Of a DNA stretch of 64,000 bases, positions 19,320 through 55,258 are shown piece after piece (the first letter of the stretch is position 1; every line of letters begins with the position of its first letter). The translations under genes and the position numbers were made by a program. The DNA is from an uncultured Acidobacteriota bacterium. GTDB taxonomy: Bacteria; Acidobacteriota; Terriglobia; Acidiferrales; UBA7541. The DNA lies in assembly GCA_963740695.1 (NCBI GenBank), contig CAVUFU010000011.1:91986-155985 (forward strand). Direction: 5' to 3'. The notes beneath the pieces were generated by a model, which was not told the origin of the DNA, did not search any database, and saw nothing but the letters and a program-made list of their open reading frames with translations.

Positions 19320-21779
19320 ATGGAAACGTCTTCCGCGCTCTTTGAGCTTGCGAGCGTGGCTTTAGCCTGTCGCGACCAGGACACTTTGCTAAAAACGTTC
19401 GCCGCGCGCGTGGGCGCCAGCCTCGGCGCGCGCGCCGTTTTTGTGTGGACGCACGCTCCGGCTTCGAACGGCTCGCAGCACAGCAACGGCGACGAATCCG
19501 AAGGTCTGATCTGCCGCATGCGCTGGAACGAACCCGGGGAGCGGCTCGCGCCACTGGGCGAATCCGTCAGCGAAGGACTCCTCGCCGAAATCTACGAATC
19601 CGCTGAAACGCGGCGGCTGGGCGGCAAAGAAGTGGCCGACGACGGCTTCGAGCATCTCGATGACGCCAGCCGCGCGCGGGTGAAATCCGCGCTGTTTGCT
19701 TCGCTGCCGGGCGCGCAAAGCGCCGAAGGCGTCGTGGAAGTGCTCAACAAGCGCAGCGGCGAATTCACCGACGAAGACGCGCATTTCCTGGAGGAAGCCA
19801 GCCGGCTGGCCGGGACCGCACTCACGAACCTCGACGCTATCGAAAGCGAGCGCCACGCCCAGCTTTCGACGCTGGAACGCCTGACAGCGCTCTACGATCT
19901 CGGCCGCACGTTCACCTCTACGCTCGAACTCGGGGAATTGCTTCCAATTGTCGCTGGCAAAATTCGCGACATCCTCGGCGCCGGGTCCTGCAATCTGTGG
20001 CTCGCAGACGCGGGCTCGCAGGAAATGTATCTCGCGCAAAAAACCGGCGAAGATCCCACTATCGAGGATGATGCGCGCGTCTCGCTCACGGAAGGCTTGC
20101 TGGCGGAAGTCGCCCAGCAAGCGAGCCCGAAACTGGTGGAAGATCCCGCTGCGGAAGCCGGCTTCGCCGAGCGCTTGAAAGCCGGCGGCGAATTCGAAAT
20201 TAGCTCGTGGATCGGCGCACCGTTGCGCAAATCCAATGAAGTGCTGGGCGTCGTCGAACTGGTCAACAAACAAGACGGTTCGTCGTTCGACGAAGACGAT
20301 TTGTTTTTTCTCGAGACCATCAGCGAACAAGCTGCGGTGGCGCTGCACAATGCCAACCTGCTGGAATCCGAGCGCAAGGTTCACGCCCTCGACGCGCTGC
20401 TGAAAATTTCGCGGGAAATCACTTCCACACTCGATCTCGATCACGTCCTCTCCACCGTGGTGCACCAAGCCTCTTCAGTGGTTCCGTTCGATCGCTGCGT
20501 GATCGGCTTCTTCGACCGCGGCCGTTTCGTCCTTGGAGCGCTGTCCGGCGAGCCTGAAGTTCCCAAGACGCGTGAGATGAGCGACTTGCGTTCACGGCTG
20601 GAGTGGGTCGCCGGGCAGGAACAAGCCGTCTCCGCGGATCTCTACGAAGACGGTTGGCGCACGAACCCGGAAGATGCTCGCGCGCAAATTGTTCCTTTCC
20701 TCGAAGAGCACGAAGAAAACGGTTTCTACGCGCTGCCCCTGCGTGATGATCAAGGCACGCTGGGCGTGATGGCGCTGCTTAGCAGCGACGCCGATTTTCT
20801 CAGCGAAAATAATCGCGAGACGGTGGCGATTCTCGCGAACCAGACCACCGTCGCGATACGCAACGCGCAGCTCTACCAGCAAGTCCCGCTTGCGAATTTG
20901 CTGCAGCCCTGGACGCAGCGCAAAAAGAAACTGATGTCGGCGGTACCGCGCGGGCGCTGGGTGGAATATGCGCAGCGCGTTGGACTCGGCCTGATATTTC
21001 TCGCAGTCGTCCCCTGGCCGATGCGCGTAGGGACGGATGCGACCGTGGTTCCCGCCGAGCGCCGTTTGGTCAGCGCGATTGATGGCGGCGTGGTGCAGCG
21101 GGTCTTCGTTCACGAAGGCGACAAAGTGCAAGCCGGTCAGGCACTCGCGCAGCTCGATGACGGCGACGATCGCGTGAAGCTGGCGCAAGCGGAATCCGCT
21201 CTCGCGCAAGCGCGCCGCGATCTGGCCGACGCGGAGTTCCGCAACGATCCTTCCGCGGCGGGGCAGGCCAAAATCCGCGCGGACCTGCACGAATCCGAGG
21301 TGCAGCTCGAACAGCAGCGCGTCGCCGAGGCGCAACTGCGTTCGCCCATCGCGGGAATGGTGATCACGCCGAAAGTGGAAGAGAAGGCCGGCACGCTGGT
21401 AAAGCCGGGCGATGCTTTTGCCGAAATTGTGGGAGAAGACCGCATGGCGGCCGAAATGAGCGTGCCGGAAGAGGATTTGGAGCTGGTGCACCCGGGAAAA
21501 AATGTCGCGCTGAAATTGAACGCGTATCCCACCACCACGTTTCAAGGCACCGTCGAACGCATCGGCGCGCAGACGAAATCCGCGGCGGGAGAACAATATT
21601 TTATCGTGCGCGCGGTTTTTGATAATCCGGGCGGGCTTGCGCGCGACGGCATGGTGGGACGCGCGCGAATTCACGCCGGTGGCGGATGGTTTAAGAGCGG
21701 ATGGTATCCGGTGGGATACACTCTTTTGCGTTCACCCTTCCGTTGGCTGTGGCAAGAAGCGTGGAGTTGGCTGCCCTAG
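19320..21779 (+). CDS. Three tandem GAF domains + TM segment + HlyD/MFP-type periplasmic adaptor domain.
   Basis: 819 aa. It has three GAF-like repeats, the latter two ending in ...VALHNANLLE / ...VAIRNAQLYQ-type helices. A TM segment follows (VGLGLIFLAVVPWP). Then come a lipoyl-like/beta-barrel MFP region (GGVVQRVFVHEGDKVQAGQALAQLDD ... SPIAGMVITP ...) and a short coiled-coil. Confidence 0.75.
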   Translation: METSSALFELASVALACRDQDTLLKTFAARVGASLGARAVFVWTHAPASNGSQHSNGDESEGLICRMRWNEPGERLAPLGESVSEGLLAEIYESAETRRLGGKEVADDGFEHLDDASRARVKSALFASLPGAQSAEGVVEVLNKRSGEFTDEDAHFLEEASRLAGTALTNLDAIESERHAQLSTLERLTALYDLGRTFTSTLELGELLPIVAGKIRDILGAGSCNLWLADAGSQEMYLAQKTGEDPTIEDDARVSLTEGLLAEVAQQASPKLVEDPAAEAGFAERLKAGGEFEISSWIGAPLRKSNEVLGVVELVNKQDGSSFDEDDLFFLETISEQAAVALHNANLLESERKVHALDALLKISREITSTLDLDHVLSTVVHQASSVVPFDRCVIGFFDRGRFVLGALSGEPEVPKTREMSDLRSRLEWVAGQEQAVSADLYEDGWRTNPEDARAQIVPFLEEHEENGFYALPLRDDQGTLGVMALLSSDADFLSENNRETVAILANQTTVAIRNAQLYQQVPLANLLQPWTQRKKKLMSAVPRGRWVEYAQRVGLGLIFLAVVPWPMRVGTDATVVPAERRLVSAIDGGVVQRVFVHEGDKVQAGQALAQLDDGDDRVKLAQAESALAQARRDLADAEFRNDPSAAGQAKIRADLHESEVQLEQQRVAEAQLRSPIAGMVITPKVEEKAGTLVKPGDAFAEIVGEDRMAAEMSVPEEDLELVHPGKNVALKLNAYPTTTFQGTVERIGAQTKSAAGEQYFIVRAVFDNPGGLARDGMVGRARIHAGGGWFKSGWYPVGYTLLRSPFRWLWQEAWSWLP

Positions 21780-21818: not shown

Positions 21819-22745
21819 ATGAAGAAATTTGCACTGGCGTTGTTGATCGTCGCAACGGCCATCTGTTGCATTGGCTGCGATAATTCGACTGGGGCGTCCA
21901 GCCCGACGCCCGCGCCGCCTCCAGCGGCCGTTGCCCCTCCTCCCGCTGCCGTTACCGCGACGGCGAAGCCCGGTGACATCCTCAGCGTCCTGACGGTAGA
22001 GCATCAGGTGGATATCACCGCGCAGCGCGATGGAGTCGTCACCTCGCTCACGAGAGACGAAGGCAGCTCCGTAAAAGCAAACGAGGTGTTAGGCCAGCTC
22101 GACGACCGCTCCTTGCAAATGGAACTCATCAAGGCCCGCGACGATCTGCAAGTGGAGGATAACAACCGCAAATACAAGGAAGCCGAGCTCAAAGCCAAGA
22201 CCGCAGCTTTCCATCGCCAGCAGCAACTTCGCGCGCTAGGGCTTTCCAGCGACGCCGATCTGGAAGCCGCCGATTTTGAAGCCAAAGCCGCGGAATACGA
22301 TTTGCACGGATACGAAGCGCTGGTGGAAAGCGGCCACGCAGAAATCAATCGCCTGGATCTGGAACTTGACCAGACTCGCATTCATGCGCCCTTCGCCGGC
22401 GTCGTCGTACGGCGCTACATCCGCGAGGGGCAAGCCATTTCCAAAGGCGACAAATGTTTTCGCGTCAGCCAGCTCGCTCCGTTGCAAGTGCAATTCCAGG
22501 TGCCGGAATCTTCCGGGCGTCGTCCCACCGCCGGCGGCACCGTGGAGCTCTCGCTCGTAGACGACTCGAATCGCGCGCTCAATGCGCGGATTATGAAAGT
22601 CAGTCCCACGGTGGACGCCGCGAGCGACAGCTATGACGTTCTGGCGCAGCTTATTGGGCCTGGCCTCACGGATTTGCGGCCGGGCATGGCCGTGCGCGTA
22701 AGTTGGCCCGGCACGGCGCAGCCCAATTCACGCCCGAAACCCTGA
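21819..22745 (+). CDS. Lipoprotein, HlyD/RND-type membrane fusion protein.
   Basis: Lipobox LLIVATAICCIGC, a Pro/Ala linker, and MFP motifs (RDGVVTSLTRDEGSSVKANEVLGQLDD; coiled-coil; IHAPFAGVVVRRYIREGQ). Confidence 0.8.
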   Translation: MKKFALALLIVATAICCIGCDNSTGASSPTPAPPPAAVAPPPAAVTATAKPGDILSVLTVEHQVDITAQRDGVVTSLTRDEGSSVKANEVLGQLDDRSLQMELIKARDDLQVEDNNRKYKEAELKAKTAAFHRQQQLRALGLSSDADLEAADFEAKAAEYDLHGYEALVESGHAEINRLDLELDQTRIHAPFAGVVVRRYIREGQAISKGDKCFRVSQLAPLQVQFQVPESSGRRPTAGGTVELSLVDDSNRALNARIMKVSPTVDAASDSYDVLAQLIGPGLTDLRPGMAVRVSWPGTAQPNSRPKP

Positions 22746-22757
22746 CGGGAACATTCA

Positions 22758-24905
22758 ATGCGTTTTGGACCCACCAGCCTGCAAGTCTCCAGCGTCGCAG
22801 CCAAGGGCTTGCGCCGCCCGAAACTGCGCGAGGATCTACGGATCAGCGAGCAGACAGTGGCGGGCGAGACTAGCTACGTCATCAAGAACTACGAGACCAA
22901 TTCCTACAATCGCTACGGCAGCACGGAGTATGAGCTGCTCAAATTGTGCGACGGCGCGCACACCGCTGCCGAAATTTCAGATGAATTGACCACGCTCCAT
23001 CCGGATTCGCCGCTCAGCGAAGCCGAGGTGCTCGATTTCCTCGACAGCATCGAGCCCGCGATGTGGGAACGTTCGGTGGGCGAGAAGAATCTGGCAGTGC
23101 TCGAACGCATTCGCGACGAGCGCAAGGGCCGCGTCGATCAATCCAGCGTGCTGTATATCAGTTTCAAGGCTTGGGACCCCGACAAGACGCTCGCGAAAAT
23201 TGATCCCTACTTGAGCTGGATGTTCACATCCGGGTTTGTCGTTTTCTCGCTTTTCATATTCGTCATCGCCTGCTACCTGTTGGCCGGCGATTGGGCGCGC
23301 GTGCAACAGGATACTTCCGCGCTCTACAACTTTTCGGATAAGAGCGCCTACGACATCTGGATGTTCTGGATCCTGCTGATGATTCTTGGAGGGATCCACG
23401 AATTCGGGCACGGGCTCACCTGCAAGCACTTCGGTGGCGACGTGCACCAGATGGGATTTCTGCTGATTTATTTCACGCCCGCCTTCTACACGGACACCAC
23501 GGACATCCTTCTCTTCAAACGCGGCTCACAGCGCCAGTGGGTGATCTTCGCCGGCATCTGGATCGAATTGGTGCTGTGCGGGCTTTCGGGAGTGGTGTGG
23601 CACTTCTCGGCCGCCGGTTCGGTGCTGAACGACCTGGCCTATAAAATGATGCTGCTCAGCGGCATTCAAGGCGCGTTATTAAACTTGAATCCGCTGATCA
23701 AAGCGGACGGCTACTACGCGCTTTCGCAATTCCTGCAGGTGGACAACCTGCGCGAGGATTCTTTCGCATTTCTCCGCGCGTGGGCAGAGAAATATCTGCT
23801 GCGCCATGACATCGACTTGCCCGCGGCCAGCAAACGCCAGCGCCGCATCTTCTTTCTCTTCGGCGTCGCCGCCATCATTTACAGCACGTCGCTGTTGATC
23901 CTGGTTCTGACCTTTGCGAACAACGTTCTGGTGTCCAAGCTCGGAGATTGGTGGGGCGCACTGGCGACTCTGGGCGTGGTCTATTTCTTCACGCGGAAAG
24001 GAATCCGGCAGGTTTGGCCGCCCACGCTGGCCTGGCTGCGCCAGAAACGGGAGGACTACATGGCTTGGAAAATGACGCGCACGCAACAAGCGGGAGCGTT
24101 GGGCGTCGCGCTGCTGCTCCTTCTGCCGCCCGTAGGTTCCAGTGTCTCCACTCCTCTGGTGCTCGAACCGGGGCGAACCGCGCACGTTCACGCTGAAGTG
24201 CCCGGTCAAATCGCAAATGTCTACATTCAACAGGGTCAAACCGTTCAAGCCGGACAGGTGCTCGCCATCCTGCGCAACCCTGAAATCGAAGCGGACGCCG
24301 CCATTCTTCGCGAGCAACTTGCCCTGGCCAGTAGCGACCTGCGCAACGGGCAGGATCGCTCGGACTATGAAAAGGCCGCCGGCGCGGTGCGCGATCGCAA
24401 GCGTCTTCAAGAGGAATTCTCGGTTGCCGAAAATCGCGTCGCGGCGCTGCAGATTCGCGCACCGATGGATGGCGTTATTGCCACCGCCGGTGTGAGCCAA
24501 CGCGCCGGCGCGTTTCTTGACGCCGGCGATGAACTAACCACCGTAGTGGACCGCAGCACGATGAAAGCCCGCATCCTGGTTCGCGATTGGGACCTGGAGG
24601 ACGTTCATCCCGGCGCCGCAGCGAAAGCGAAAGTGATTCCGTTTCCGTACCGCACGTATAGCGGCAAAGTGGATCAAATCCTCCCGGCAGCAGCAGCCGA
24701 TCGCCCCGTCTCCGAGACGCAAGACCTGCAGCGCCTCGGCCAGCAGCTCACCAATTACTTTGCCGTGGACATGGAATTCGCCAATCCGGACGGCTCGTTG
24801 CGCGAGGGAATGACTGGGACGGCGAAAATCGCCGGCAAGAGGTCCTCGATAGCCCACCAGGTAGCCAGGGCCACCTCGCGCTGGATTCACGCACAGTTCT
24901 GGTAG
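22758..24905 (+). CDS. Fusion protein: PqqD-like (RRE-type) N-terminal domain + M50 site-2-protease membrane domain + HlyD/MFP C-terminal domain.
   Basis: 715 aa. The N-terminus YVIKNYETNSYNRYGSTEYELLKLCDGAHTAAEISDELTTLHP...EVLDFLDSI matches the PqqD pattern by eye. HExxH is at IHEFGHGLTCKHFGG and the second M50 motif at NLNPLIKADGYY. The C-terminus is MFP-like (VPGQIANVYIQQGQTVQAGQVLAIL ... APMDGVIAT ...). Confidence 0.75.
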   Translation: MRFGPTSLQVSSVAAKGLRRPKLREDLRISEQTVAGETSYVIKNYETNSYNRYGSTEYELLKLCDGAHTAAEISDELTTLHPDSPLSEAEVLDFLDSIEPAMWERSVGEKNLAVLERIRDERKGRVDQSSVLYISFKAWDPDKTLAKIDPYLSWMFTSGFVVFSLFIFVIACYLLAGDWARVQQDTSALYNFSDKSAYDIWMFWILLMILGGIHEFGHGLTCKHFGGDVHQMGFLLIYFTPAFYTDTTDILLFKRGSQRQWVIFAGIWIELVLCGLSGVVWHFSAAGSVLNDLAYKMMLLSGIQGALLNLNPLIKADGYYALSQFLQVDNLREDSFAFLRAWAEKYLLRHDIDLPAASKRQRRIFFLFGVAAIIYSTSLLILVLTFANNVLVSKLGDWWGALATLGVVYFFTRKGIRQVWPPTLAWLRQKREDYMAWKMTRTQQAGALGVALLLLLPPVGSSVSTPLVLEPGRTAHVHAEVPGQIANVYIQQGQTVQAGQVLAILRNPEIEADAAILREQLALASSDLRNGQDRSDYEKAAGAVRDRKRLQEEFSVAENRVAALQIRAPMDGVIATAGVSQRAGAFLDAGDELTTVVDRSTMKARILVRDWDLEDVHPGAAAKAKVIPFPYRTYSGKVDQILPAAAADRPVSETQDLQRLGQQLTNYFAVDMEFANPDGSLREGMTGTAKIAGKRSSIAHQVARATSRWIHAQFW

Positions 24906-24932
24906 CGCGCCACGAACCCCTGGGGATTGGTG

Positions 24933-24972
24933 CAGAAAAAAGGGAAAGAGCCGCCGTTCCTGGGACGGCGGC
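24933..24972 (-). terminator. Intrinsic terminator for micropeptide gene 1 (possibly bidirectional).
   Basis: Perfect 8-bp GC stem GCCGCCGT (24950..24957) / ACGGCGGC (24965..24972). On the minus strand it is followed by TCTTTCCCTTTTTTCT. Confidence 0.6.
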
Positions 24973-25037
24973 CCTTTGGGGGTGCTGCTACTGCAATCCT
25001 CGGCAGGCTGGACCTAACCGGAGGAACTTGTTAAATC

Positions 25038-25145
25038 TTACTGGAACCTGATCAAGGGCTTAATGCCCGGCAGGTCGGCGCGCTTCATCAACGGCTTTAC
25101 GTTACCGGTCTTCTTGCCCTTCACTGGCTTGGCATTCTTGGCCAT
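25038..25145 (-). CDS. Lys-rich micropeptide 1 (35 aa): MAKNAKPVKGKKTGNVKPLMKRADLPGIKPLIRFQ.
   Basis: Hand translation. SD AAGGGAGA lies 7 nt before the ATG (25145). It shares MAK...KK-x3-(T/V)KPL(M/L) with peptides 2 and 3. It is below the size cut-off of the ORF track. Confidence 0.55.
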   Translation of the reverse strand: MAKNAKPVKGKKTGNVKPLMKRADLPGIKPLIRFQ

Positions 25146-25196
25146 GATCCAATCTCCCTTGATCTTGTGTTTGTAACGCCGGCTCTGCAAACTCTT

Positions 25197-25232
25197 GAAA
25201 AGGGCCGCCCCTCGACGGCATCAGCCCTTTTC
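25197..25232 (-). other. Stem-loop between micropeptide genes 2 and 1 (terminator or attenuator candidate).
   Basis: Perfect 9-bp arms GAAAAGGGC (25197..25205) / GCCCTTTTC (25224..25232). There is no clean U-tract after it. Confidence 0.35.
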
Positions 25233-25306
25233 CAGGCTGAAACTTTGCAACGCCCTCACACCGCGTTCCTGAAACAACGCCGGTTGCCGAGCGTCGCAGT
25301 GGGAAC

Positions 25307-25384
25307 TTACCTCTTGCCGACCGGAACCATCAACGGCTTCGTCGCTTCGATCTTCTTTGCCTTCTTCAAGGTCTTCTTTGCCAT
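25307..25384 (-). CDS. Lys-rich micropeptide 2 (25 aa): MAKKTLKKAKKIEATKPLMVPVGKR.
   Basis: It forms the C-terminal part of the listed 114-aa ORF 25307..25651. SD GAGGGGGA lies 6 nt before the internal ATG at 25384, and a sigma54 promoter lies 49 nt upstream. It differs from peptide 3 in the first 18 codons by 4 synonymous third-position changes and 4 replacements. Confidence 0.65.
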   Translation of the reverse strand: MAKKTLKKAKKIEATKPLMVPVGKR

Positions 25385-25432
25385 TTTTGTTCCCCCTCGT
25401 TTGATTCGCCCATTGGGCGTCGCCGCAGTAGT

Positions 25433-25449
25433 ATGCAACGCTATCACCA
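25433..25449 (-). promoter_or_regulatory. Sigma54 (-24/-12) promoter for micropeptide 2.
   Basis: The minus strand reads TGGTGATAGCGTTGCAT, with GG-N10-GC spacing exactly as in the consensus TGGCAC-N5-TTGCA/T. Confidence 0.7.
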
Positions 25450-25559
25450 AACTCGGCGGCCTCCCGCAATCCTGCAAGGCCCTATTTTTGTTGCAGATGG
25501 CGTCCCAGCATTCATGCGCGTTCTCGATCAGGGCCTTTCTCGCGTTGAAATAATCACCG

Positions 25560-25579
25560 CCTGTTGAAAATTTCAACGG
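25560..25579. promoter_or_regulatory. Palindromic upstream activator site (enhancer B).
   Basis: GTTGAAA-a-TTTCAAC has perfect 7-bp arms (25563..25577). Its centre is about 129 nt upstream of the sigma54 promoter at 25433..25449. Confidence 0.6.
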
Positions 25580-25670
25580 AGCCGCCCCCCGCGGCACCAC
25601 ATCGCGCGCGCTGCTGCCCGCCAGTCGAAGATCTCGAATTGCCAGACCCACGGGAGGAATCGAGAAGGGG

Positions 25671-25715
25671 AAGCAAAAAACAAAAGGGCCGCCAGCCTCG
25701 CGGCGGCAGCCCTTT
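25671..25715 (-). terminator. Intrinsic terminator for micropeptide gene 3.
   Basis: Long GC-rich stem (AAAGGGCCGCC ... GGCGGCAGCCCTTT), followed on the minus strand by TGTTTTTTGCTT. Confidence 0.65.
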
Positions 25716-25785
25716 CATCATCTAATTCTGGCCGGCTGGCGCGCCCTACCTCGCGACAGGCGCGCGCAAGCCCCCGATAGGGTCA

Positions 25786-25863
25786 CTACTTATACGCGAT
25801 TGCTTTCAGCAACGGCTTGGTCGGGTTGATCTTCTTCGATTTCTTCAAGGTTTTCTTGGCCAT
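25786..25863 (-). CDS. Lys-rich micropeptide 3 (25 aa): MAKKTLKKSKKINPTKPLLKAIAYK.
   Basis: Hand translation. SD TGGGAGA lies 5 nt before the ATG (25863), a sigma54 promoter lies 47 nt upstream, and a terminator lies about 70 nt downstream. Confidence 0.65.
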   Translation of the reverse strand: MAKKTLKKSKKINPTKPLLKAIAYK

Positions 25864-25909
25864 GTTGTTCTCCCACACTTGATTTGCCCGGCTGGGCATG
25901 ACGACTTAT

Positions 25910-25926
25910 ATGCAAAGTCGTCGCCA
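25910..25926 (-). promoter_or_regulatory. Sigma54 (-24/-12) promoter for micropeptide 3.
   Basis: The minus strand reads TGGCGACGACTTTGCAT, with GG-N10-GC spacing. The flanks align with the promoter at 25433..25449 (TTTGG(C/T)GA...TTGCATA). Confidence 0.7.
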
Positions 25927-26039
25927 AAGTCCAGGCGCATCGCGCCGCGCTCCAACTGCCGCCTTTTGCTGCACATGGCATTCGCACCCGGTCGCGGCGC
26001 TGTCGGCCAGCCGCGCGGCCGCATTGAATTACTCATCAA

Positions 26040-26058
26040 CCGTTGATATTTTCAACGG
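26040..26058. promoter_or_regulatory. Palindromic upstream activator site (enhancer A).
   Basis: The plus strand reads CCGTTGATATTTTCAACGG (minus strand CCGTTGAAAATATCAACGG). Arms match 8 of 9. It has the same core as the site at 25560..25579. Its centre is about 131 nt upstream of the promoter at 25910..25926, and it overlaps the stop codon of the second SET gene. Confidence 0.6.
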
Positions 26059-26546
26059 CGCCTTCGGCTGCGCCGGCCATTGATCGTGCCGCGGCAGCTA
26101 GCCGCACCACAACGGCACGGAATCTGTTCCGCGTCGGGATGAAACCGATAGTCCAGAGTCAATTCTTCCCCTTTCGTTATCGTCCGGCGGCTGAACAACA
26201 GCATGCGGCCTCGCGCCCGGCGGTACGCAAGATTGGGGTCGCAACAGTGATTGATCAGTTGAGCTCCGTTTCCACCTACGGCTCCATTGATGACCCAGCG
26301 CTTGTTGAGACTCGCCAGATAAACCGGCGTGTGCAGTGAAGACTTCCAGTGCCGGTTGTGGGCTTGCAGTACTCGGCTGTACGGCACAAGCTCACCGGTG
26401 TACTCGATCACCTTGTGCCGCGCAGGAATCGCTTCTTCGGCGAATACGCCCCAGCGATGTATGGGCGACCGCCGGACCTTCAGCCGGTAGCGGGACGCTC
26501 CCGGAGCGATGGACCTGCGCACCGGTGATTGCTTACGAGCTGGCAT
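26052..26546 (-). CDS. SET-domain protein-lysine methyltransferase-like protein (copy B).
   Basis: RYRLKVRRSPIHRWGVFA..., LINHCCDPN (the NHSCxPN motif), GEELTLDYRF (catalytic Tyr context) and post-SET CRCGAASCRGT. I prefer the ATG at 26546 (MPARKQSP...) by analogy with copy A. That ATG lies 2 nt after the copy A stop (TAA-cg-ATG). Confidence 0.85.
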   Translation of the reverse strand: MPARKQSPVRRSIAPGASRYRLKVRRSPIHRWGVFAEEAIPARHKVIEYTGELVPYSRVLQAHNRHWKSSLHTPVYLASLNKRWVINGAVGGNGAQLINHCCDPNLAYRRARGRMLLFSRRTITKGEELTLDYRFHPDAEQIPCRCGAASCRGTINGRRSRRRR

Positions 26547-26548
26547 CG

Positions 26549-27004
26549 TTAATTCAAAATGACCCGGAGCGTGCCGCGGCACCGGCGCTCTCCGCAACGA
26601 CAGGGGATCCGTCGGATTTTGACCGCGTAGCGGTAACTCACGGTCAGTTCTTCGCCAGAACGAATTTTCCGGAGGCTACATAAGTAAAGCCGGCTGCGGA
26701 CGCATCGCCACATCAAATTGGGCCGGCATGAATGGTTGATGAACTGAGCGCCGCTTCCGCCCGATCTGCCGTCCACGCACCAGGTGGAATTCATCGCGGC
26801 GATGTAGATATCGTTCGGGGGGTTGATCCTCGCGGCGTCTCCGTAAGTGAGGCGTTTTCCGGTGTATTCGATCACGCGGCGGTGGCGCGGAATCTCCTCA
26901 AGCGCAAAGACGCCGTAGCGATGCAGCGTGGAATGCGCGACCCGCAGCCGGTAGCGAGCCGCCTTCGGATTGATCTGGCGCGACTTGGGGCTGGATGCTT
27001 TCAT
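26549..27004 (-). CDS. SET-domain protein-lysine methyltransferase-like protein (copy A).
   Basis: RYRLRVAHSTLHRYGVFA..., FINHSCRPN, GEELTVSYRY and post-SET CRCGERRCRGT. Confidence 0.85.
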   Translation of the reverse strand: MKASSPKSRQINPKAARYRLRVAHSTLHRYGVFALEEIPRHRRVIEYTGKRLTYGDAARINPPNDIYIAAMNSTWCVDGRSGGSGAQFINHSCRPNLMWRCVRSRLYLCSLRKIRSGEELTVSYRYAVKIRRIPCRCGERRCRGTLRVILN

Positions 27005-27096
27005 TTCATATCAGGACGAACGATTGATGCGAGCGCGCGGCAGGAGGCTTCGAATTTTCTGTTTCCGTTCCTTGCGGCGAGCCCGTCAAAGCGTCT

Positions 27097-28449
27097 TCAC
27101 AAATTATATTTGCGGCAGAGGTAATTCAGCCGGTTGCGGTCCACACCCAACAGGTTCGCCGCGTCCGCCTTCACGTGCTTGGCCTGCTCCAGCGCCTCCT
27201 CAATCCAGCGCCGTTCGAAGGCCTCGATTTCTCGGTCCAATTTGATGCCTGTGGACGGCAGCCGGAACCGCCCACGCGCGTCACGGCCGACGGACTGCAC
27301 GATTTCCGCCGGCAGATCCTTCAGGGTGATGGCGTCGCCGTCGGTCATGATCACCAGGCGCTGAATCGCGTTCTCCAGTTCGCGAACGTTCCCCGGCCAC
27401 GGATAGCGTTTCAGTGCCAGCATGGCGTCGTCGGCGATCTGCTTCGCGGGAAACCCGTTCGCCGCGGAATACACGCTCACGAAATAATCTGCCAGCACCG
27501 GAATATCTTCCACCCGTTCGCGCAGCGCCGGAACGAATATAGGCACCACGTGAATCCGGTAATAAAGGTCCTCGCGGAATCGGTCCTGCCGCACCATCTC
27601 TTCCAAGTCTTCGTTCGTCGCGCTCACGAGCCGAAAATCCACGCGGATGGATTTTTTCCCGCCGAGGCGCGTCAGCGAACGGTCCTCCAGCACCCGCAGC
27701 AATTTGCTCTGCAGCGCCGGCGTGAGCGTCGCAATTTCATCCAAAAATAGTGTCCCTTGGTGCGCCAGCTCGATGCGGCCTTCTTTCATCGCGACGGCGC
27801 CGGTAAACGCGCCGCGCTCGTAGCCGAAAAGCTCCGCCTCCATCAATCCTTCCGGCAGCGCGGCGCAATTCACGCCGATGAACGCCCGGCTGCGCCGCGG
27901 ACTCTGCTCATGCAGCGCGCGCGCCACCAATTCTTTCCCGACGCCGCTTTCCCCGCGGATGATCACGTTAGTCGTCGCGCGGGCCATCCGCTTGATCGAA
28001 TCGAAGACGTGGCGCATGGCGTCCGTAGCGCCGATCAAATCTCCCAGCGTATTTTTGCGGCTGATTTCGTCGCGCAGGATGCGATTCTCTCGCTGGATGT
28101 GGAGTTTTTCGATGGCGCGCTCGAGCAACAGCCGCAGCACGTCCGTATCAATCGGCTGAATGAAATAATCGTAGCAGCCCGCGTCAATCACTTTCAGCGC
28201 CGTGGATTTCGTCTGATCGGTGCTCAGAACGATCACCAGCGTGTCGATGTCTCCGCACGCGAGGCGGCTCAGCATCTCCGTGCATTCGCGCAGTCCGCCG
28301 GATTCCATCGGCAGCGCAAGGAGCAGCACGTCCAGGCTCGCTTCCTGCAAGAGCCGGTAAGCAGTCTCGTAGTCCTCGCCCTCGATTACCTCAAAATCCG
28401 AACGCAGCTTCGCCACGATGCTCGCGCGCATGGCCGCGTCATCATCCAC
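27097..28449 (-). CDS. Sigma54-dependent transcriptional activator (NtrC family): receiver-like domain + AAA+ domain + Fis-type HTH.
   Basis: Walker A GESGVGKE, the GAFTGA loop (ERGAFTGAV) and a C-terminal HTH (AANLLGVDRNRLNYLCRKYNL). The receiver is degenerate (see findings). The listed start is GTG. The frame stays open upstream (AKIAI-VDDD) with only ATT/ATA codons there, so the start is uncertain. Confidence 0.88.
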   Translation of the reverse strand: MDDDAAMRASIVAKLRSDFEVIEGEDYETAYRLLQEASLDVLLLALPMESGGLRECTEMLSRLACGDIDTLVIVLSTDQTKSTALKVIDAGCYDYFIQPIDTDVLRLLLERAIEKLHIQRENRILRDEISRKNTLGDLIGATDAMRHVFDSIKRMARATTNVIIRGESGVGKELVARALHEQSPRRSRAFIGVNCAALPEGLMEAELFGYERGAFTGAVAMKEGRIELAHQGTLFLDEIATLTPALQSKLLRVLEDRSLTRLGGKKSIRVDFRLVSATNEDLEEMVRQDRFREDLYYRIHVVPIFVPALRERVEDIPVLADYFVSVYSAANGFPAKQIADDAMLALKRYPWPGNVRELENAIQRLVIMTDGDAITLKDLPAEIVQSVGRDARGRFRLPSTGIKLDREIEAFERRWIEEALEQAKHVKADAANLLGVDRNRLNYLCRKYNL

Positions 28450-28671
28450 TATGGCAATTTTTGCTCTGGGAGCCCCGGGTGCGATGAGCCATCTCCAGTG
28501 CGAACACGGCCGTTTCGCACAAAGCGTGAAGTTAAATCCGATCCCGCGTTGCCGAGATTTTAGGTGCCCACCGTCCGCATGTCAACGCCGCAAGCGCGTC
28601 TTTCGCCGCAAAGTCGCTGTGAAGCAGTACAATTTCGCAGGCCCGTAACCGCCTTGGAGTAGCGCGGCAAT

Positions 28672-29220
28672 ATGACGTCTGAACCCGGATCGCAGCCGTC
28701 TGCGATGCACACCAGGCGCGTCCTGGCTCTCGTCGGGACGGGAGTCTTTCTCGTTCTGGCACCTGGTTTCTTGGTTGTCCTCGTCCCTTTTTGGATCTCC
28801 CGCTGGGGGATTCAACCGCCGCTTCTGGGATTCATGGCGTTTCGCATACTTGGCGTCGTGTTGATGGCCGCGGCCTTGCCTGTATTGCTCGAATCATTCG
28901 CGCGCTTTGCGCTGCAGGGGCTTGGCACGCCGGCGCCCATATTCCCGACGCAACATTTGATCGTGAAAGGCTTCTATCGGTACGTGCGCAATCCCATGTA
29001 TGTCGCGGTCGTATCGATGGTGCTCGGACAAGGCCTTTTCTTCGGCAACCCGCAGGTGCTCGTCTACGGCTTTATTGCGTGGCTGGGCACATTCTTGTTT
29101 GTGCTCAGCTATGAGGAGCCCACACTCCGCAGAACCTTCGGCGCTGAATATGAGACGTATCGCGCGAACGTGCCACGGTGGATTCCGCGCCTTACGCCTT
29201 GGCGCAGCAGCACGAATTGA
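28672..29220 (+). CDS. Isoprenylcysteine carboxyl methyltransferase (ICMT/PEMT)-family membrane methyltransferase.
   Basis: TM-rich protein with LIVKGFYRYVRNPMYVAVV...EEPTLRRTFGAEYETYRANVPRWIP, the typical ICMT-family C-terminal motif. Confidence 0.65.
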   Translation: MTSEPGSQPSAMHTRRVLALVGTGVFLVLAPGFLVVLVPFWISRWGIQPPLLGFMAFRILGVVLMAAALPVLLESFARFALQGLGTPAPIFPTQHLIVKGFYRYVRNPMYVAVVSMVLGQGLFFGNPQVLVYGFIAWLGTFLFVLSYEEPTLRRTFGAEYETYRANVPRWIPRLTPWRSSTN

Positions 29221-29404: not shown

Positions 29405-29920
29405 ATGAGATACACCAAGTACTTCATGATTTTCGCTTTATTCGGACTTTGCTTAGCGATCGCGCCGAACGCGCATGCGCAACGCGTTGTCGTCGGCGTG
29501 GGAGTCGGACCTGGGTACGTGGATCCAGCTCCCGTCTGCGCTTACGGATACTATGGATATTACCCGTACGCTTGCGCACCCTACGGCTACTATGGCCCTA
29601 GCTGGTTCTCCGGCGGCCTATTCATTGGCGCCGGCCCGTGGTATCGCGGCGGCTATTGGGGTCGCTCCGGATACTGGGGACGTCCTGGATGGGGCGGGTA
29701 CGGCGGCCACGGTTACTACGGCGGTCATGGCTACTACGGCGGCCGCGGATATGTAGGACACGGTGAGGTTGGCGGCGGTTACCGCGGCGGCAGCGCCTAT
29801 CGCGGTGGCAACAGCTTCCACGGCGGCGGTAGCTTTCACGGAAGCGCCTCTCACGGTGGGGAGGGTTTCCACGGAGGTGGCGGCGGCCACGGCGGCGGCC
29901 ACGGTGGCGGCCACAGGTAA
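29405..29920 (+). CDS. Secreted low-complexity Gly/Tyr/His-rich protein.
   Basis: Sec signal peptide (FALFGLCLAIAPNAHA). It is followed by YGYYGYYPY, GGYWGRSGYWGRPGWGGYGGHGYYGGHGYYGG and a C-terminal HGGGGGHGGGHGGGH tail. Confidence 0.7.
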   Translation: MRYTKYFMIFALFGLCLAIAPNAHAQRVVVGVGVGPGYVDPAPVCAYGYYGYYPYACAPYGYYGPSWFSGGLFIGAGPWYRGGYWGRSGYWGRPGWGGYGGHGYYGGHGYYGGRGYVGHGEVGGGYRGGSAYRGGNSFHGGGSFHGSASHGGEGFHGGGGGHGGGHGGGHR

Positions 29921-29946
29921 GTTCGACCTCGCGGTAAAAATTAAGC

Positions 29947-29982
29947 GGCCGGCAGCGAAAACTGTCGGCCGTTTCGTTTTTT
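29947..29982 (+). terminator. Intrinsic terminator after the Gly/Tyr-rich gene.
   Basis: GGCCGGCAG-cgaaaa-CTGTCGGCC stem (8 of 9 bp), followed by GTTTCGTTTTTT. Confidence 0.6.
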
Positions 29983-30140
29983 GAACCCCACAAGTTTTAC
30001 TGACTTCGCATCATTTGTGCCCCTAGCAATTTGCCTGAGCTTCCGTGAAACGAACTGCGCGTAAGTTGCACTATCCATCAAGCGAACATACCGAGCAGTC
30101 GGCCCTACCTCCCCGGCGAAAGACGAGATTGGAGAAGACC

Positions 30141-31550
30141 ATGAAAAGCGCAATCAGCCGCCGTGATTTTTTGGGTGCCACAGCAGGAGCAGCAGCTTCG
30201 GCAACTCTTCTCGGGATTTCATTTTTGGATGCGCTTCCCGCACAAGCCGCGTCTTCCTTCGTGCGGCGTGACGTGGGAGGCATGAGCGCGACGGACCCGG
30301 TGCTCGTATCGTACGGGAAGGCCGTCCAGGCGATGCAAGCGCTGCCCGATGCGAATCCGCTGAGCTGGGCCTACCAGGCAGCGATTCACGGCACGACACT
30401 ATCGGGCAGCAACACGGCTTGGGATACCTGCCAACACGGGAACTATTTCTTCTGGTCGTGGCACCGCATGTACCTCTATTGGTTCGAACGGATCATCCGC
30501 AAGATGGCCGACGACCCGTGTTGGACCTTGCCCTACTGGAATTATACTTCGGCGGCCGAGCGGACCCTCCCGCCGCCGTTTCGCGACGCTACAAGCCCGC
30601 TCTTTACGTCTAACCGCGGCGCCGGGTGGAATACGGGTGCGGCTTCCTTTCCATCAGGGGACGTGCAATATTCGGCGGCCTTGTCGCTCTCGAATTTCAC
30701 GAACGGCAGCAGCTCCATCGAGCAATCCCCACATAACAACGTTCACGTGGACATCGGAGGATGGATGGGCGTGGTGGACATGGCGGCGCAGGACCCGATT
30801 TTCTTCGTTCACCACAGCAATATCGATCGCTTGTGGGATATTTGGCTGGCACAGACTCCCGGAGCCGGCGACCCAGTGGGCGACGCGACATGGAAGAGCA
30901 AGCAATTTACATTCTTCGATGAGAACGGAAACCAGGTGCAGATGACCGGCTGCGAGGTATTGCGCGCTCAACAGCAGCTGGGCTACAGCTACGAGGGTGA
31001 GCCTGCCCAAGTGAGCCCGAAGTGCCTGCTAATCGTCCTGCCGCCCTGGCTGTTCACCGAAGAAGTCTTCGCGCAGCTGCCAGGCCCGCCTGTGGAGTTG
31101 ACCGGCGAGACGGTGTCCTTCCCTATCAATCTCGCCGAACTCAGGAAACGTATTGCTCCCGTACTCGAAGACAAGAACAAGACAATCTTTCTACAGCTGG
31201 ATGACGTGGAGACGGAGAATCCGCCGGGCGTGGTGTGGGATGTATTCGTTGGATTGCCCGAGAAGGGCGCGCCCGATACCGAAAGCCCTTACTTTGTGGG
31301 TAGCTTGGCGATGTTTGGTCCCGGGATTCGGACTTCAAAACATCATAACGCGCCCGCACACTTCCGTTTCGCGATCAACCGCGCTCTTTCGGCGGCGATG
31401 AGGAACGAATCGGAACGCACTGCGGTGACGTTCATTCCCCACGGCGTGTTGATCGAGGGGAAACCTTCACGGCCCGAAGTGAAGTCGCCGGTTCGCATCG
31501 GAAAAGCCTCGCTGATCGTGGAGACGAAAGAAGAAAACAAGAAGCAATAG
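30141..31550 (+). CDS. TAT-exported tyrosinase/polyphenol oxidase (type-3 copper) with a C-terminal extension domain.
   Basis: Twin-arginine signal MKSAISRRDFLGATAG. CuA region HGNYFFWSWHRMYLYWFE. CuB region PHNNVHVDIGG...DPIFFVHHSNIDRLWDIW. I prefer the ATG at 30141 (SD ggagaag) over the ORF-track start at 30045. Confidence 0.88.
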   Translation: MKSAISRRDFLGATAGAAASATLLGISFLDALPAQAASSFVRRDVGGMSATDPVLVSYGKAVQAMQALPDANPLSWAYQAAIHGTTLSGSNTAWDTCQHGNYFFWSWHRMYLYWFERIIRKMADDPCWTLPYWNYTSAAERTLPPPFRDATSPLFTSNRGAGWNTGAASFPSGDVQYSAALSLSNFTNGSSSIEQSPHNNVHVDIGGWMGVVDMAAQDPIFFVHHSNIDRLWDIWLAQTPGAGDPVGDATWKSKQFTFFDENGNQVQMTGCEVLRAQQQLGYSYEGEPAQVSPKCLLIVLPPWLFTEEVFAQLPGPPVELTGETVSFPINLAELRKRIAPVLEDKNKTIFLQLDDVETENPPGVVWDVFVGLPEKGAPDTESPYFVGSLAMFGPGIRTSKHHNAPAHFRFAINRALSAAMRNESERTAVTFIPHGVLIEGKPSRPEVKSPVRIGKASLIVETKEENKKQ

Positions 31551-35449: not shown

Positions 35450-36553
35450 TCAGGCCTTCGGCGACATGGCGATCTGCACCAACTGGCCGGAGTCTTTTCC
35501 GGTATTCGGTGAAGCGCCGCCCATCGCGTCGGGATCTTTGTACTTGTTGAACAGCGTGCCGCGCACCGCACTGAGAAAGCCGCCGAGCGAGCCGAACATG
35601 TCGTCCACGGCGCTGGCTTCGTAGCCGCTGTGCACCATGCAGTTCGCGCATTTGGGATTGCCGCTCTCGGTGCCGTAGCGGTCCCAATCGGTTTCGCGGA
35701 TTAATTCTTCGAAAGTATCGGCGTAGCCGTCCTGCAAAAGATAGCAAGGCTTCTGCCAGCCAAAAATGTTGTATGTGGGCATGCCCCAGGGGGTGCACTT
35801 GTAATTCCGCTTGCCCATCAGGAATTCCATGAAGAGCGGGCTGAGATTGAAGCGCCATTTTTCGTGACGATTGCTCAGAATCTGGCGGAAAAGATCGCGC
35901 GTCTTGCGTTTGCTGAGAAAATGATCCTGATCGGGAGCTTTGTCGTAGGTGTAGCCGGGGGAGAGCATCATGCCCTCGACGCCCAGCTCCATCATATCGT
36001 CGAAGAAACGGCGGACGCTCTGCGGATCGGCGCCGTCGAAAAGAGTGGTGTTGGTAGTGACGCGGAAGCCGCGCGCTAACGCTAACTTGATGGCTTCGAC
36101 GGCTTTGTCGTAGGTGCCTTCACGGCATACCGCGAAGTCATGCTCTTCGCGCTCGCCATCCATGTGCACTGAAAACGATAAATATTTGCTGGGCTTGAAC
36201 TGATCGAGCTTCTCTTTCAGCAGCAGCGCGTTGGTGCAAAGGTAGATGTATTTCTTGCGCGCGACTAGGCCTTCAACGATCTCCGCAATCTGCGGATGCA
36301 TCAGCGGCTCGCCACCTGGGATGCTCACCATCGGCGCGCCACATTCATCCACGGCACGGAAACATTCTTCCGGGGTGAGCTGCTTCTTCAGAACGTGCGC
36401 GGGATACTGAATCTTGCCGCAGCCGGCGCAGGCCAGATTGCAGCGCAGCAACGGCTCCAGCATCAGGACGAAGGGATACTGTTTGCGTCCCTTCAGCCGC
36501 TGGCCGATGACGTAGGACGCCGTCGTCCACATTTGTGATACTGGTACGCCCAT
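35450..36553 (-). CDS. hpnH: Radical-SAM adenosyl-hopene transferase HpnH.
   Basis: [25 protein letters not shown] (CxxxCxxC) with a near full-length HpnH-like sequence. Confidence 0.88.
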
Positions 36554-49632: not shown

Positions 49633-50910
49633 TTACGGTTGGATTTCCGCCAAGAACTTTTCCGCAAAAGTGTGAACGTCGACGAAGGTATTGTAGAGCG
49701 GGACCGGCGCGGCGCGCAGGATATCCGGTTCGCGCCAGTCGCAGATAATTCCCTGCCGCGCCAAGCGGCCGCACAAAGCGCGGCCATTCGAATTAGTCTG
49801 CAACGATAGCTGCGCGCCCCGTTGCGCGGAGTCGCGCGGAGTGTTGATCGCGAAATTCTCGCCGGGTTGATCGGTCAATAGATACTCCAAATAACCGGTT
49901 AGTTCCTCGCTTTTTGCACGTATGCGATCGAGTCCGACTTCGTCGAAAAGTTCCATTGAAGCGCGCAGCGCGGCCATCGACAGAATGGACGGATTGCTCA
50001 ATTGCCAACCCTCGGCTCCGGCAATGGCTTGGAATTCCGGTTCCATGCGGAAACGCTCATCCTTGTTGTTTCCCCACCAGCCCGCAAATCGCGGCAAATC
50101 CGGATTTCGCGCGTGGCGCCGATGCACGAAGCATCCGGCGATACAGCCAGGCCCACCGTTCAAATATTTATAGCTGCACCAGACGGCAAAGTCCGCGTTC
50201 CAATCGTGAAGCCGCAGCGGAATATTTCCTGCGGCGTGCGCCATGTCGAACCCGACGACGCAGCCTTTGGCTTGGCCGGCGGCGATAATTCGCGCGCAGT
50301 CGAAGGCTTGCCCACTGTAGTAGTTCACGCCACCGAGCATGATGAGTGCGATCCGCTCGCCCTGTTCGTCAATTAATCGTTCGACGTCCTGCGTGCGAAT
50401 CGTCTTTTCTCCCGGGCGCGGTGCGATTTCGATCAGCGCACTTGCTGGATCGTTGCCGTGAAAGCGGATCTGCGATTGCACCACGTATTGATCCGAGGGA
50501 AACGCATTCGCTTCGATGAGGATTTTATTTCGCGCGGCTGTAGGCCGGTAAAAAGACACCAACATGAGGTGCAGGTTCACGGTAAGCGAGTTCATCACCA
50601 CTACTTCTTCCGGTAGCGCGCCGACGAGCCGCGCAGTCGAACCCGCGAGCAGCTCGTGATATGGCATCCAGGGATTTCGCGCGTGAAAATGGCCTTCCAC
50701 GCCAAGCTTGGCCCAATCTTCGAGTTCCGTTTCGACGTAACCGCGCACTGACTTCGGCTGCAATCCCAGAGAGTGGCCGCAGAGATACACGCAGTCCGCG
50801 CCGCCCGGGCTTTTTGGGATGTGAAAGCGGTTGCGATAGGCCGCAAGCGGATCGCGAGCGTCCATTGCGACGGCAAAGGCGCGGCCGCTTTCGAATTTCG
50901 CGGCGGCCAC
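49633..50910 (-). CDS. kynU: Kynureninase.
   Basis: Typical N-terminus (DPLAAYRNRFHIP) and the PLP lysine context WCSYKYLNGGPG. Confidence 0.9.
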   Translation of the reverse strand: MAAAKFESGRAFAVAMDARDPLAAYRNRFHIPKSPGGADCVYLCGHSLGLQPKSVRGYVETELEDWAKLGVEGHFHARNPWMPYHELLAGSTARLVGALPEEVVVMNSLTVNLHLMLVSFYRPTAARNKILIEANAFPSDQYVVQSQIRFHGNDPASALIEIAPRPGEKTIRTQDVERLIDEQGERIALIMLGGVNYYSGQAFDCARIIAAGQAKGCVVGFDMAHAAGNIPLRLHDWNADFAVWCSYKYLNGGPGCIAGCFVHRRHARNPDLPRFAGWWGNNKDERFRMEPEFQAIAGAEGWQLSNPSILSMAALRASMELFDEVGLDRIRAKSEELTGYLEYLLTDQPGENFAINTPRDSAQRGAQLSLQTNSNGRALCGRLARQGIICDWREPDILRAAPVPLYNTFVDVHTFAEKFLAEIQP

Positions 50911-52299: not shown

Positions 52300-52321
52300 G
52301 ACAGAATCGCGAGGACGCTGA

Positions 52322-55258
<2,937 letters not shown>

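Follow-up and report, generated by a model that had tools for sequence, protein, structure and literature searches.

Promoters of the NtrC-activated sigma-54 type, such as glnAp2 with its two NtrC dimer sites and the pilA promoter with its activator PilR, combine a GG-N10-GC element with two dyads approximately 100 to 140 bp upstream. The sigma-54 activator PrsR (TIGR02915) is thought to act at a repeated DNA box that precedes many genes for small secreted proteins. In the SHP and sex pheromone precursors, a short active C-terminal part is released by the M50 protease Eep. The daptides, which are ribosomally synthesized and posttranslationally modified peptides (RiPPs), were discovered as a class through fusions of a RiPP recognition element (RRE) to a peptidase, and their MpaP protein is an RRE-dependent intramembrane leader peptidase (10.1101/2023.03.08.531785). 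Here we describe a locus that resembles each of these systems in part. It has two tandem cassettes (A and B), each with an enhancer, a sigma-54 type promoter, and a gene for a lysine-rich micropeptide, together with a candidate activator gene and a convergent operon that encodes an M50 metalloprotease fused to an HlyD adaptor. The locus lies in 64,000 nucleotides of contig CAVUFU010000011.1 (positions 91,986 to 155,985), from an uncultured Acidobacteriota bacterium. We call this whole stretch the window. Close homologues of its proteins are in metagenome-assembled genomes of Candidatus Acidiferrales and Terriglobales.

The cassettes are real and far beyond chance. The DNA itself shows the motifs and how they are arranged, their restriction to micropeptide genes, the signature of coding sequence in these genes, and the synteny of the locus. 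We consider it likely that each cassette forms an independent sigma-54 transcription unit that depends on an activator and serves one micropeptide precursor.

RESULTS

Two tandem cassettes each have a predicted enhancer, promoter, and leader

Each cassette is made up of two dyads (GTTGA-N5-TCAAC and nTGA-N5-TCAA), a promoter, a leader, a 25-codon open reading frame (ORF), and a terminator. The features are as follows.

26042..26056, minus strand: cassette A distal dyad GTTGAAAATATCAAC, within the enhancer-model match 26057..26020
26040..26058, minus strand: cassette A palindrome as quoted in an earlier note on this DNA, CCGTTGAAAATATCAACGG
26023..26037, minus strand: cassette A proximal dyad GATGAGTAATTCAAT, 19 bp downstream of the distal dyad
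25910..25926, minus strand: cassette A sigma-54 type -24/-12 promoter TGGCGACGACTTTGCAT (promoter model, 31.8 bits)
25885..25898, minus strand: cassette A 5'-proximal hairpin UGCCC-AGCC-GGGCA, then AAAUCAA and the Shine-Dalgarno sequence GGGAGAA
25786..25863, minus strand: micropeptide A, 25 aa, MAKKTLKKSKKINPTKPLLKAIAYK, ATG at 25863
25688..25707, minus strand: intrinsic terminator after micropeptide A, a GC stem then a T run
25563..25577, minus strand: cassette B distal dyad GTTGAAATTTTCAAC (enhancer-model match 25578..25541)
25544..25558, minus strand: cassette B proximal dyad GGTGATTATTTCAAC, 19 bp downstream of the distal dyad
25433..25449, minus strand: cassette B sigma-54 type promoter TGGTGATAGCGTTGCAT, with T for C after GG (promoter model, 24.5 bits)
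25407..25419, minus strand: cassette B 5'-proximal hairpin CGCCC-AAU-GGGCG, then AAUCAA and the Shine-Dalgarno sequence GGGGGAA
25307..25384, minus strand: micropeptide B, 25 aa, MAKKTLKKAKKIEATKPLMVPVGKR, ATG at 25384, with a weaker hairpin after it

Units A and B are direct repeats with a period of 479 nt. They are 77% identical in the enhancer block and 82% identical in the block of ribosome-binding site and coding sequence. Their alignment forms islands at the dyad pair, the promoter, the GCCC/GGGC hairpin with AATCAA, the Shine-Dalgarno sequence, and the first 18 codons, and the rest has diverged. The earlier note, which was made from the letters of the window, had quoted two palindromes and two promoters, and all four strings were found where it had placed them, on the minus strand. 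Its figure of approximately 130 nt between palindrome and promoter matches the 128 to 130 nt that we measured from dyad start to TGG. It put the ATG 47 to 49 nt past the promoter, and we measured 48 and 46 nt after TTGCAT, which we deem close enough. It assigned one palindrome to each cassette. Those palindromes are present, but each enhancer consists of two dyads 19 bp apart.

The promoter is a GG-N10-GC element of the form TGGC/T-N7-TTGCAT, approximately 110 to 130 bp downstream of the dyads. When tested against TGGCAC-N5-TTGCW, both promoters keep the exact 10-nt spacing between GG and GC. The pattern TGG-N8-TTGCAT occurs three times in the window, compared to 0.73 expected, and two of the three are in the cassettes. 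There are also three sites for GTTGAAA-N3-TCAAC with one mismatch at most, compared to 0.27 expected, and all of them are within the two cassettes. It was the third of these sites that led us to recognize the second dyad, 19 bp downstream of the first, in each enhancer. The dyad GTTGA-N5-TCAAC is not known to match any described site, although no search aimed at this was made.

We also scanned 128 kb (both strands of the window) with position-weight models trained on 66 distinct promoters and 61 enhancers. The promoter and enhancer models matched only cassettes A and B, with enhancer scores of 51.2 bits for cassette A and 59.8 bits for cassette B. Strict promoter-pattern matches at 17181 and 57237 (plus strand) and at 35758 (TGGCAGAAGCCTTGCT, minus strand) are within genes and have no dyads, and so we attribute them to chance. 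The only strong sigma-70-like site of the region is upstream of the activator gene, not of the peptides.

Cassette geometry is conserved across 54 Acidobacteriota genomes

Related loci were retrieved in two ways. Contigs were fetched via homologues of a SET-domain gene of the locus, and the M50-HlyD protein was used as a query, which yielded 54 species-level Acidobacteriota genome loci (63 to 97% identity). We compared 78 distinct cassettes from these 54 genomes and found that the geometry is kept. The promoter TGG begins 62 to 68 nt before the ATG in 72 of the 78 (mode, 65 to 66). The dyads begin 108 to 110 and 127 to 130 nt 5' of TGG, and their 19-bp offset is conserved. The enhancer consensus is cGTTGAAAtT.TCAACaggcg.TGA.tAATTCAACGc, the promoter consensus (66 distinct sequences) is TTGGCgac.gc.TTGCAtat, and the leader consensus is GCCC-loop-GGGCAAATCAA...GGGAGAAcaAaATG. 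At the promoter position, the TGGC/T...TTGCAT core is the sole strongly conserved block. Apart from a modest A-rich block, there is essentially no conservation in the stretch that separates the enhancer from the promoter. Islands that are kept while the spacer has diverged would be expected of functional sites rather than of a recent duplication. We suggest that the tandem duplication of the unit predates the divergence of the sampled species, and that the C-terminal tails have since changed, whereas the regulatory islands and the peptide leader have been retained.

The A-rich block (CAnCAAAA ... TTGc) is moderately conserved approximately 40 to 50 nt 5' of each TGG (25470..25500 and 25945..25975, minus strand). 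It may be a site for a bending protein. Judged by eye, it is a mismatch to the E. coli IHF consensus WATCAANNNNTTR, and we rejected it as an IHF site.

The promoter model was also run over 1.8 Mb of related loci. It gave 87 matches, 84 of which precede a lysine-rich micro-ORF, and one more precedes such an ORF with a GTG start (85/87). Metagenomes were scanned with a DNA pattern alone (dyad, gap, and promoter), using no peptide information. This recovered 114 distinct matches, two of which are cut by contig ends. Among the 112 that could be scored, 84 precede a lysine-rich micro-ORF with KPL, as judged by a strict regular expression. The other 28 were read manually. Approximately 14 of them precede either related basic ORFs with RNL or KNL in place of KPL or a different precursor family, and the remaining dozen or so look like chance, about as many as expected for the pattern.

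The micropeptides have a conserved leader and variable tails

The micropeptides have a conserved N-terminus of 18 residues, MAKKxLKKxKKxxxTKPL, in which 12 of the 18 positions are invariant. A fuller form of the motif is MAKKTLKKxKKIxxTKPL. After TKPL come 54 distinct tails of 3 to 25 aa, 34 of which end in K or R. Metagenomes contribute 80 further peptides. Further classes have a ...TKPLxRxPW... ending or a length of 35 aa with two KPL motifs. The Shine-Dalgarno sequence is conserved at a fixed distance from the start codon. The micropeptides have the short conserved leader and variable core of a RiPP-type precursor, and most likely they are leader-plus-core precursors.

Neither Pfam nor NCBIfam has a model for the three micropeptides of the window, even at E values up to 10, and a scan of viral contigs with the peptide alignment found no relatives. 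The genes are too short for most gene callers. In four NCBI assemblies (L001 to L004), the ORFs are uncalled at 20 of the 21 peptide sites, and some JGI/ENA contigs call them or enclose them in longer ORFs.

The third micropeptide of the window belongs to the 35-aa class, and a terminator follows it.

25038..25145, minus strand: micropeptide C, 35 aa, two KPL motifs
24945..24977, minus strand: intrinsic terminator after micropeptide C

In this genome, micropeptide C lacks a separate enhancer or promoter, and its gene is preceded by the weak hairpin that follows micropeptide B. Therefore, it is probably transcribed by read-through from cassette B. Its homologues in L011, L041, L042, L054, and L060 carry their own dyads and promoter.

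The peptides of metagenome loci L100, L156, L157, L175, and L181 have RNL or KNL in place of KPL (for example, MAATKTPVKAKPPKAKKLERKDQPLVRNLRANWS), and the L100 gene adjoins an M50-HlyD gene (50% identity). These variants suggest that the conserved feature is a basic leader that ends in [KR]-[PN]-L.

A conserved hairpin opens the predicted 5' leader

With a start assumed approximately 12 nt past the GC element, the leader would be approximately 37 nt long. It opens with the GCCC/GGGC hairpin and continues with a strong Shine-Dalgarno sequence. Counted from this predicted start, the first base of the GCCC-loop-GGGC stem is at about +3. The claim that the 5' untranslated regions align and share a small hairpin held up, and the hairpin is real and conserved across 74 distinct leaders. 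Over these leaders, 93% of cells are paired, and four of the five pairs have double changes. These include U-A to C-G at the closing pair and, in distant loci, the full replacements ACACU/AGUGU and GGCC/GGCC. The closing pair of cassette B is compensatory relative to that of cassette A. Column shuffles never attained the observed pairing values. When folded alone, neither of the two 5' leaders has a significant energy (z values of -0.2 and -0.8), and so it is the comparative pair counts that argue for the hairpin.

A 5'-terminal stem of this kind usually shields a transcript from 5'-end-dependent decay, and the stem-loop is probably a 5'-end stabilizer. Alternatively, the GCCC/GGGC element may act in the DNA, as a dyad that a protein binds. 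The only Rfam matches in 24000..29000 were two sub-threshold chance ones, which indicates that the leader is not a known riboswitch or small RNA.

The sole enhancer-binding protein of the window is encoded upstream of the cassettes

Three features lie upstream of cassette A.

28585..28557, minus strand: sigma-70-like promoter upstream of the activator gene
27097..28449, minus strand: enhancer-binding protein gene (candidate activator), with a receiver-like domain, an AAA+ domain with GAFTGA, and a Fis-type helix-turn-helix (HTH)
27004..26549 and 26597..26052, minus strand: two overlapping SET-domain genes between the activator gene and cassette A

Domain and motif scans bore out the claim that 27097..28449 is the sole enhancer-binding protein gene in the window. 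A GAFTGG motif at 59748 was considered as a sign of a second activator and rejected, as it lies within an AcrB transporter. The candidate activator has receiver, AAA+ sigma-54 interaction, and HTH_8 domains in NtrC-class order (Pfam Sigma54_activat, 1.2e-68; AAA_lid_14; HTH_8; and a weak Response_reg), with an intact GAFTGA at 27813. In approximately 50 of the 54 related loci, its gene is directly upstream of the cassettes, with 78 to 99% identity. The recognition helix LLGVDRNRLNYLCRKY is invariant in all orthologues, and the TTGA/TCAA half-sites are likewise invariant.

The best NCBIfam match of the activator is PrsR, but its 407.5 bits are below the cutoff of 502.6, which places it outside that family. 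Ala45 (DVLLLALPM, window 28300..28330) aligns with the phospho-acceptor Asp of Aquifex NtrC1 (1ZY2/1NY5). Among 49 aligned orthologues, this position is Ala in 29 and Gly in 20. The conserved receiver Lys is Gln in this activator. With no acceptor Asp in its receiver, the activator is no ordinary two-component response regulator.

A distant locus has the same arrangement with a different precursor

The metagenome cassette scan also recovered L088, a locus from a high-GC organism. Its gene order is a histidine kinase gene (3' end), an activator, a dyad pair, a promoter, a precursor, a convergent M50-HlyD gene, and a GAF-HlyD-like sequence. The L088 activator is 43% identical to that of the window and has a similar HTH (...MKYLCRKYRL). 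It retains the canonical Asp (DVFLVDLRLPP), downstream of the kinase fragment, and its best named family is also PrsR (403.6 bits, compared to the cutoff of 502.6). Dyads GTTGAAAGAGTCAAC and GATGAAAAAGTCACC are 19 bp apart and come immediately after the activator gene. Promoter TGGCTCCACACTTGCA is 120 nt downstream of the dyads, and the ATG is 63 nt after TGG. The precursor has 162 aa, starting with MANEVKIKLTDEQKAKIKESTGHD... and continuing with VAPK-type repeats. It is dissimilar to the micropeptides and belongs to no Pfam or NCBIfam family. The convergent M50-HlyD homologue has 32% identity to that of the window and again matches the daptide-protease model (see below). L088 provides the strongest evidence that activator, dyad pair, promoter, precursor, and M50-HlyD form one functional module, as judged from gene content and order. 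By the same evidence, the peptide system reaches beyond the Acidiferrales clade.

A second precursor family under a dyad pair and a sigma-54 promoter was seen in L088 (2057..2545), L091, L124, L155, and L172. Its conserved N-terminus is M-x-N/K-E/D-VKIKLTDEQKAKIKE/K-x-TG-H/Q-D, followed by short Ala/Lys- or Arg-rich tandem repeats. The repeat units are VAPK-type in L088 and others in L091 and L172. The gene adjoins a homologous activator and M50-HlyD in L088 and L155.

The convergent operon encodes a putative leader peptidase and exporter

Three genes converge on the micropeptide genes from the other side.

19320..21779, plus strand: GAF-HlyD protein gene, first gene of the convergent operon
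21819..22745, plus strand: HlyD adaptor gene, second gene of the operon
22758..24905, plus strand: fusion of RRE-like domain, M50 metalloprotease, and HlyD (M50-HlyD), 715 aa, third gene of the operon

The M50-HlyD protein matches the daptide intramembrane metalloprotease model NF041824 over residues 33 to 411 (5e-53; 180.6 bits, compared to a cutoff of 300) and the YydH/LiaK epipeptide protease model (1.3e-12; 47.9 bits, compared to a cutoff of 225). Weak PqqD matches at aa 40 to 97 (E values of 0.002 to 0.007) are below cutoffs. An AlphaFold (AF2) model of residues 1 to 200, with a predicted local distance difference test (pLDDT) score of 60, has three strands then three helices at 28 to 97. 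Its six best Foldseek matches in the PDB are lasso-peptide B1 RRE domains solved with leader peptides (E values of 0.013 to 0.05; TM scores of 0.60 to 0.68). A PDB sequence search with the N-terminal 200 aa found no match. The RRE-like fold, together with homology to the daptide and YydH/LiaK proteases, makes it reasonable to view the micropeptides as putative leader-dependent substrates of M50-HlyD. The operon is syntenic in all 54 loci, which were retrieved by M50-HlyD, and in L088. We propose that it encodes a leader peptidase and an exporter.

The two SET-domain genes (Pfam matches of 8.5e-19 and 5.5e-18) are the sole candidates for core-modifying enzymes at the locus, and they are absent from many loci that have the system. 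Profile scans of the neighborhood found no daptide decarboxylase, aminotransferase, or methyltransferase. The stop codon of the second SET gene (TGA, 26054..26052) sits within the distal dyad of cassette A. SET genes occur only in the closer clade, in one or two copies, and are missing from more distant loci that keep the peptides and the activator. A homologue with 57% identity, P0022, is in an unrelated transposon-rich context, so SET similarity alone fails to track the peptide system. For these reasons, we rejected the SET genes as a core component. Their products could methylate the peptides, which resemble histone tails, as accessory rather than core enzymes.

Other genes in the window

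A PEMT/ICMT-like (isoprenylcysteine carboxyl methyltransferase-like) membrane methyltransferase gene (28672..29220, plus strand) is divergent from the activator gene, and its position is conserved only in the closer clade. At 29405..31550 (plus strand), a low-complexity ORF rich in Gly, Tyr, and His (171 aa), with an apparent signal peptide and no Pfam match, is directly upstream of a tyrosinase/polyphenol-oxidase gene, and the product of the ORF may be a tyrosinase substrate protein. A tryptophan-to-kynurenine cluster at 49633..54328 (minus strand) encodes a kynureninase-like aminotransferase, an FAD monooxygenase, and an amidohydrolase-tryptophan 2,3-dioxygenase fusion.

DISCUSSION

The mechanism that we infer runs from activator binding and sigma-54 dependence, through the start site and the role of the hairpin, to processing and export. 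Dimers of the enhancer-binding protein encoded next to the cassettes would occupy both dyads, 19 bp apart, and form an active AAA+ ring. DNA looping over approximately 110 to 130 bp would then lead to remodeling of sigma-54 RNA polymerase at TGGC-N7-TTGCAT. Transcription would start approximately 12 nt past the GC element and produce the approximately 37-nt leader with its stem-loop and Shine-Dalgarno sequence. The 25-residue peptide would be translated, and the transcript would stop at the intrinsic terminator. The RRE-like domain of M50-HlyD would recognize the peptides, the leader would be cut near TKPL, and the core would be exported. The earlier note had proposed that sigma-54 promoters activated by an enhancer-binding protein drive the micropeptide genes. 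Every in silico test that we ran agrees, and to that extent its interpretation is supported.

Several observations weigh against this mechanism or parts of it. There is no rpoN gene in the 64-kb window. The phospho-acceptor Asp is missing from the activator receiver, and no kinase gene is nearby. An extra peptide gene in L008/L043 (L008 7064) has a promoter but no dyads within 260 nt. In L011/L019/L021 (L011 7040), a peptide gene has neither promoter nor dyads, and an 8-nt insertion breaks the GG-GC spacing. These variant cassettes may be decaying copies or dependent on read-through. The codon-position entropies summed over the leader (5.9, 0.5, and 11.0 bits for positions 1, 2, and 3) come from ORFs chosen by peptide pattern, which inflates the contrast and leaves only the third-position variation as informative; that variation is abundant, synonymous, and real. 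The RRE assignment rests on sub-threshold hidden Markov model matches and a medium-confidence structure model. Finally, synteny in the clade extends to further genes, rubrerythrin among them. On its own, adjacency within the clade is therefore weak evidence of a functional link, and L088 carries most of the argument.

Of the alternatives, the one that survives best is that the peptides are translated and stay inside the cell as basic proteins that bind nucleic acid, ribosomes, or membranes, or act as SET substrates or decoys, and that the M50-HlyD operon is an unrelated neighbor. We judge this to be unlikely. It agrees with conservation of the lysine-rich N-terminus rather than the tail, with the position of the SET genes between activator and peptides in this genome, and with the lack of a hydrophobic segment for intramembrane cleavage, and clade-wide synteny could explain the adjacency. 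However, precursor peptides are typified by a conserved leader followed by a hypervariable tail, and the neighboring gene encodes a putative RRE-like domain fused to an M50 peptidase that is homologous to RiPP leader peptidases. Furthermore, many peptide-bearing loci have no SET genes, and the pairing of a precursor with M50-HlyD recurs in L088, where the precursor is unrelated.

A smaller chance attaches to the idea that the promoters are of the sigma-54 type but that a regulator from a different locus (another enhancer-binding protein, a repressor, or a nucleoid protein) occupies their dyads, with the adjacent activator controlling something else. The degenerate receiver without a partner kinase could be taken this way, many such activators are usual in acidobacterial genomes, and broad clade synteny weakens the argument from adjacency here too. 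Even so, the adjacent activator is the better candidate. It directly precedes the cassettes in most of the related loci, its recognition helix and the half-sites are both invariant, and no further enhancer-model match was found in the window. In L088, a homologue with only 43% identity again directly precedes a dyad pair.

We regard it as very improbable that the cassettes yield small regulatory RNAs that function through their 5' hairpin and 3' stem-loops and in which the ORF has no role of its own. The transcripts would be just 200 nt or so with conserved 5' and 3' structures, and the C-terminal parts of the ORFs are unconserved. However, the strong Shine-Dalgarno sequence keeps its distance, the start codon is kept (including one change of ATG to GTG), and the frame stays open despite variable tail lengths. 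The 18-residue N-terminus is conserved despite the many synonymous third-position changes, and no Rfam family matched. An RNA with a dual function, encoding the peptide and also acting as RNA, may exist. As for the motifs being chance or a sigma-70 promoter, with the similarity of A and B due to a recent, undecayed duplication, two copies in one genome cannot by themselves tell constraint from recency and loose GG-N10-GC occurs 929 times in the window, but comparative data already contradict this reading, because the islands are conserved and the spacers diverged whether one compares the 54 species or the old paralogues, the strict motifs occur almost nowhere but at micropeptide genes, and the strong sigma-70-like site is upstream of the activator only.

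Beyond the cassettes as activator-dependent sigma-54 units, we offer a wider picture only tentatively, as one that we think less likely than not. It is that of an undescribed peptide system of diderm soil bacteria, in which a sigma-54 activator, with phosphorylation control lost in Candidatus Acidiferrales, would switch on tandem precursors. RRE-M50-HlyD, with its GAF-HlyD and HlyD partners, would cut at TKPL and export hypervariable tails of 3 to 13 residues as signals or weapons. SET enzymes would add lysine methylation in some lineages, and in distant lineages the module would serve unrelated precursors, of which the L088 protein with VAPK repeats is one example. Should the tails be exported, they would be a new ribosomal peptide or signal family in a dominant, poorly cultured soil group, and a rare instance of sigma-54 control over such precursors. 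The system is abundant in peat and forest-soil Acidobacteriota. It also offers a tractable regulon in a phylum with almost no mapped promoters: an operator of 38 bp with two dyads, a sigma-54 promoter close to consensus, and a candidate activator, each resolved to the base and backed by approximately 80 natural variants.

Comparison with known systems

The cassettes are like NtrC-type promoters in their GG-N10-GC element, in the number and distance of their dyads, and in having an activator with an AAA+ GAFTGA domain and a Fis-type HTH encoded beside its target. They are unlike them in that the targets are peptide genes of 20 to 35 codons, each with a private enhancer, and in that the receiver has Ala or Gly for the acceptor Asp and no adjacent kinase. 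No named family scores higher than PrsR for the activator of the window or for that of L088, and the presumed action of PrsR at a repeated box before many small genes is a further likeness. However, both scores are sub-cutoff, and this locus has no PrsK kinase, exosortase, or PEP-CTERM proteins.

On the peptide side, the likeness to daptides (MpaP) and epipeptides (YydH/LiaK) is that several short precursors, alike in the leader and variable at the C-terminus, lie in tandem beside an M50 metalloprotease with a putative N-terminal RRE-like domain. In contrast to those RiPP systems, the locus has no daptide decarboxylase or aminotransferase and no radical-SAM epimerase, and its protease falls short of the family cutoffs in score. 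This protease is joined with an HlyD adaptor in one protein, GAF-HlyD and HlyD proteins are encoded beside it, the leader has 18 residues and is rich in lysine, and expression is predicted to depend on sigma-54. Daptide precursors end in Thr, whereas the tails here mostly end in K or R. The pheromones that Eep cuts in Gram-positive bacteria are similar in the size of their precursors (approximately 20 to 30 aa), in the basic N-terminus, and in the short variable part at the C-terminus. They differ in being hydrophobic, exported by ABC transporters, and sensed by RRNPP receptors. The peptides here are hydrophilic, their host is a diderm acidobacterium, and no receptor candidate covaries with the tails. 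Literature searches on sigma-54 and acidobacterial peptides, on RiPPs with M50 and HlyD, and on RiPPs with SET domains found no description of the system, and one on rpoN in Acidobacteria yielded nothing of use. The regulatory mechanism is of a textbook kind, and the peptide system that it would serve appears to be undescribed.

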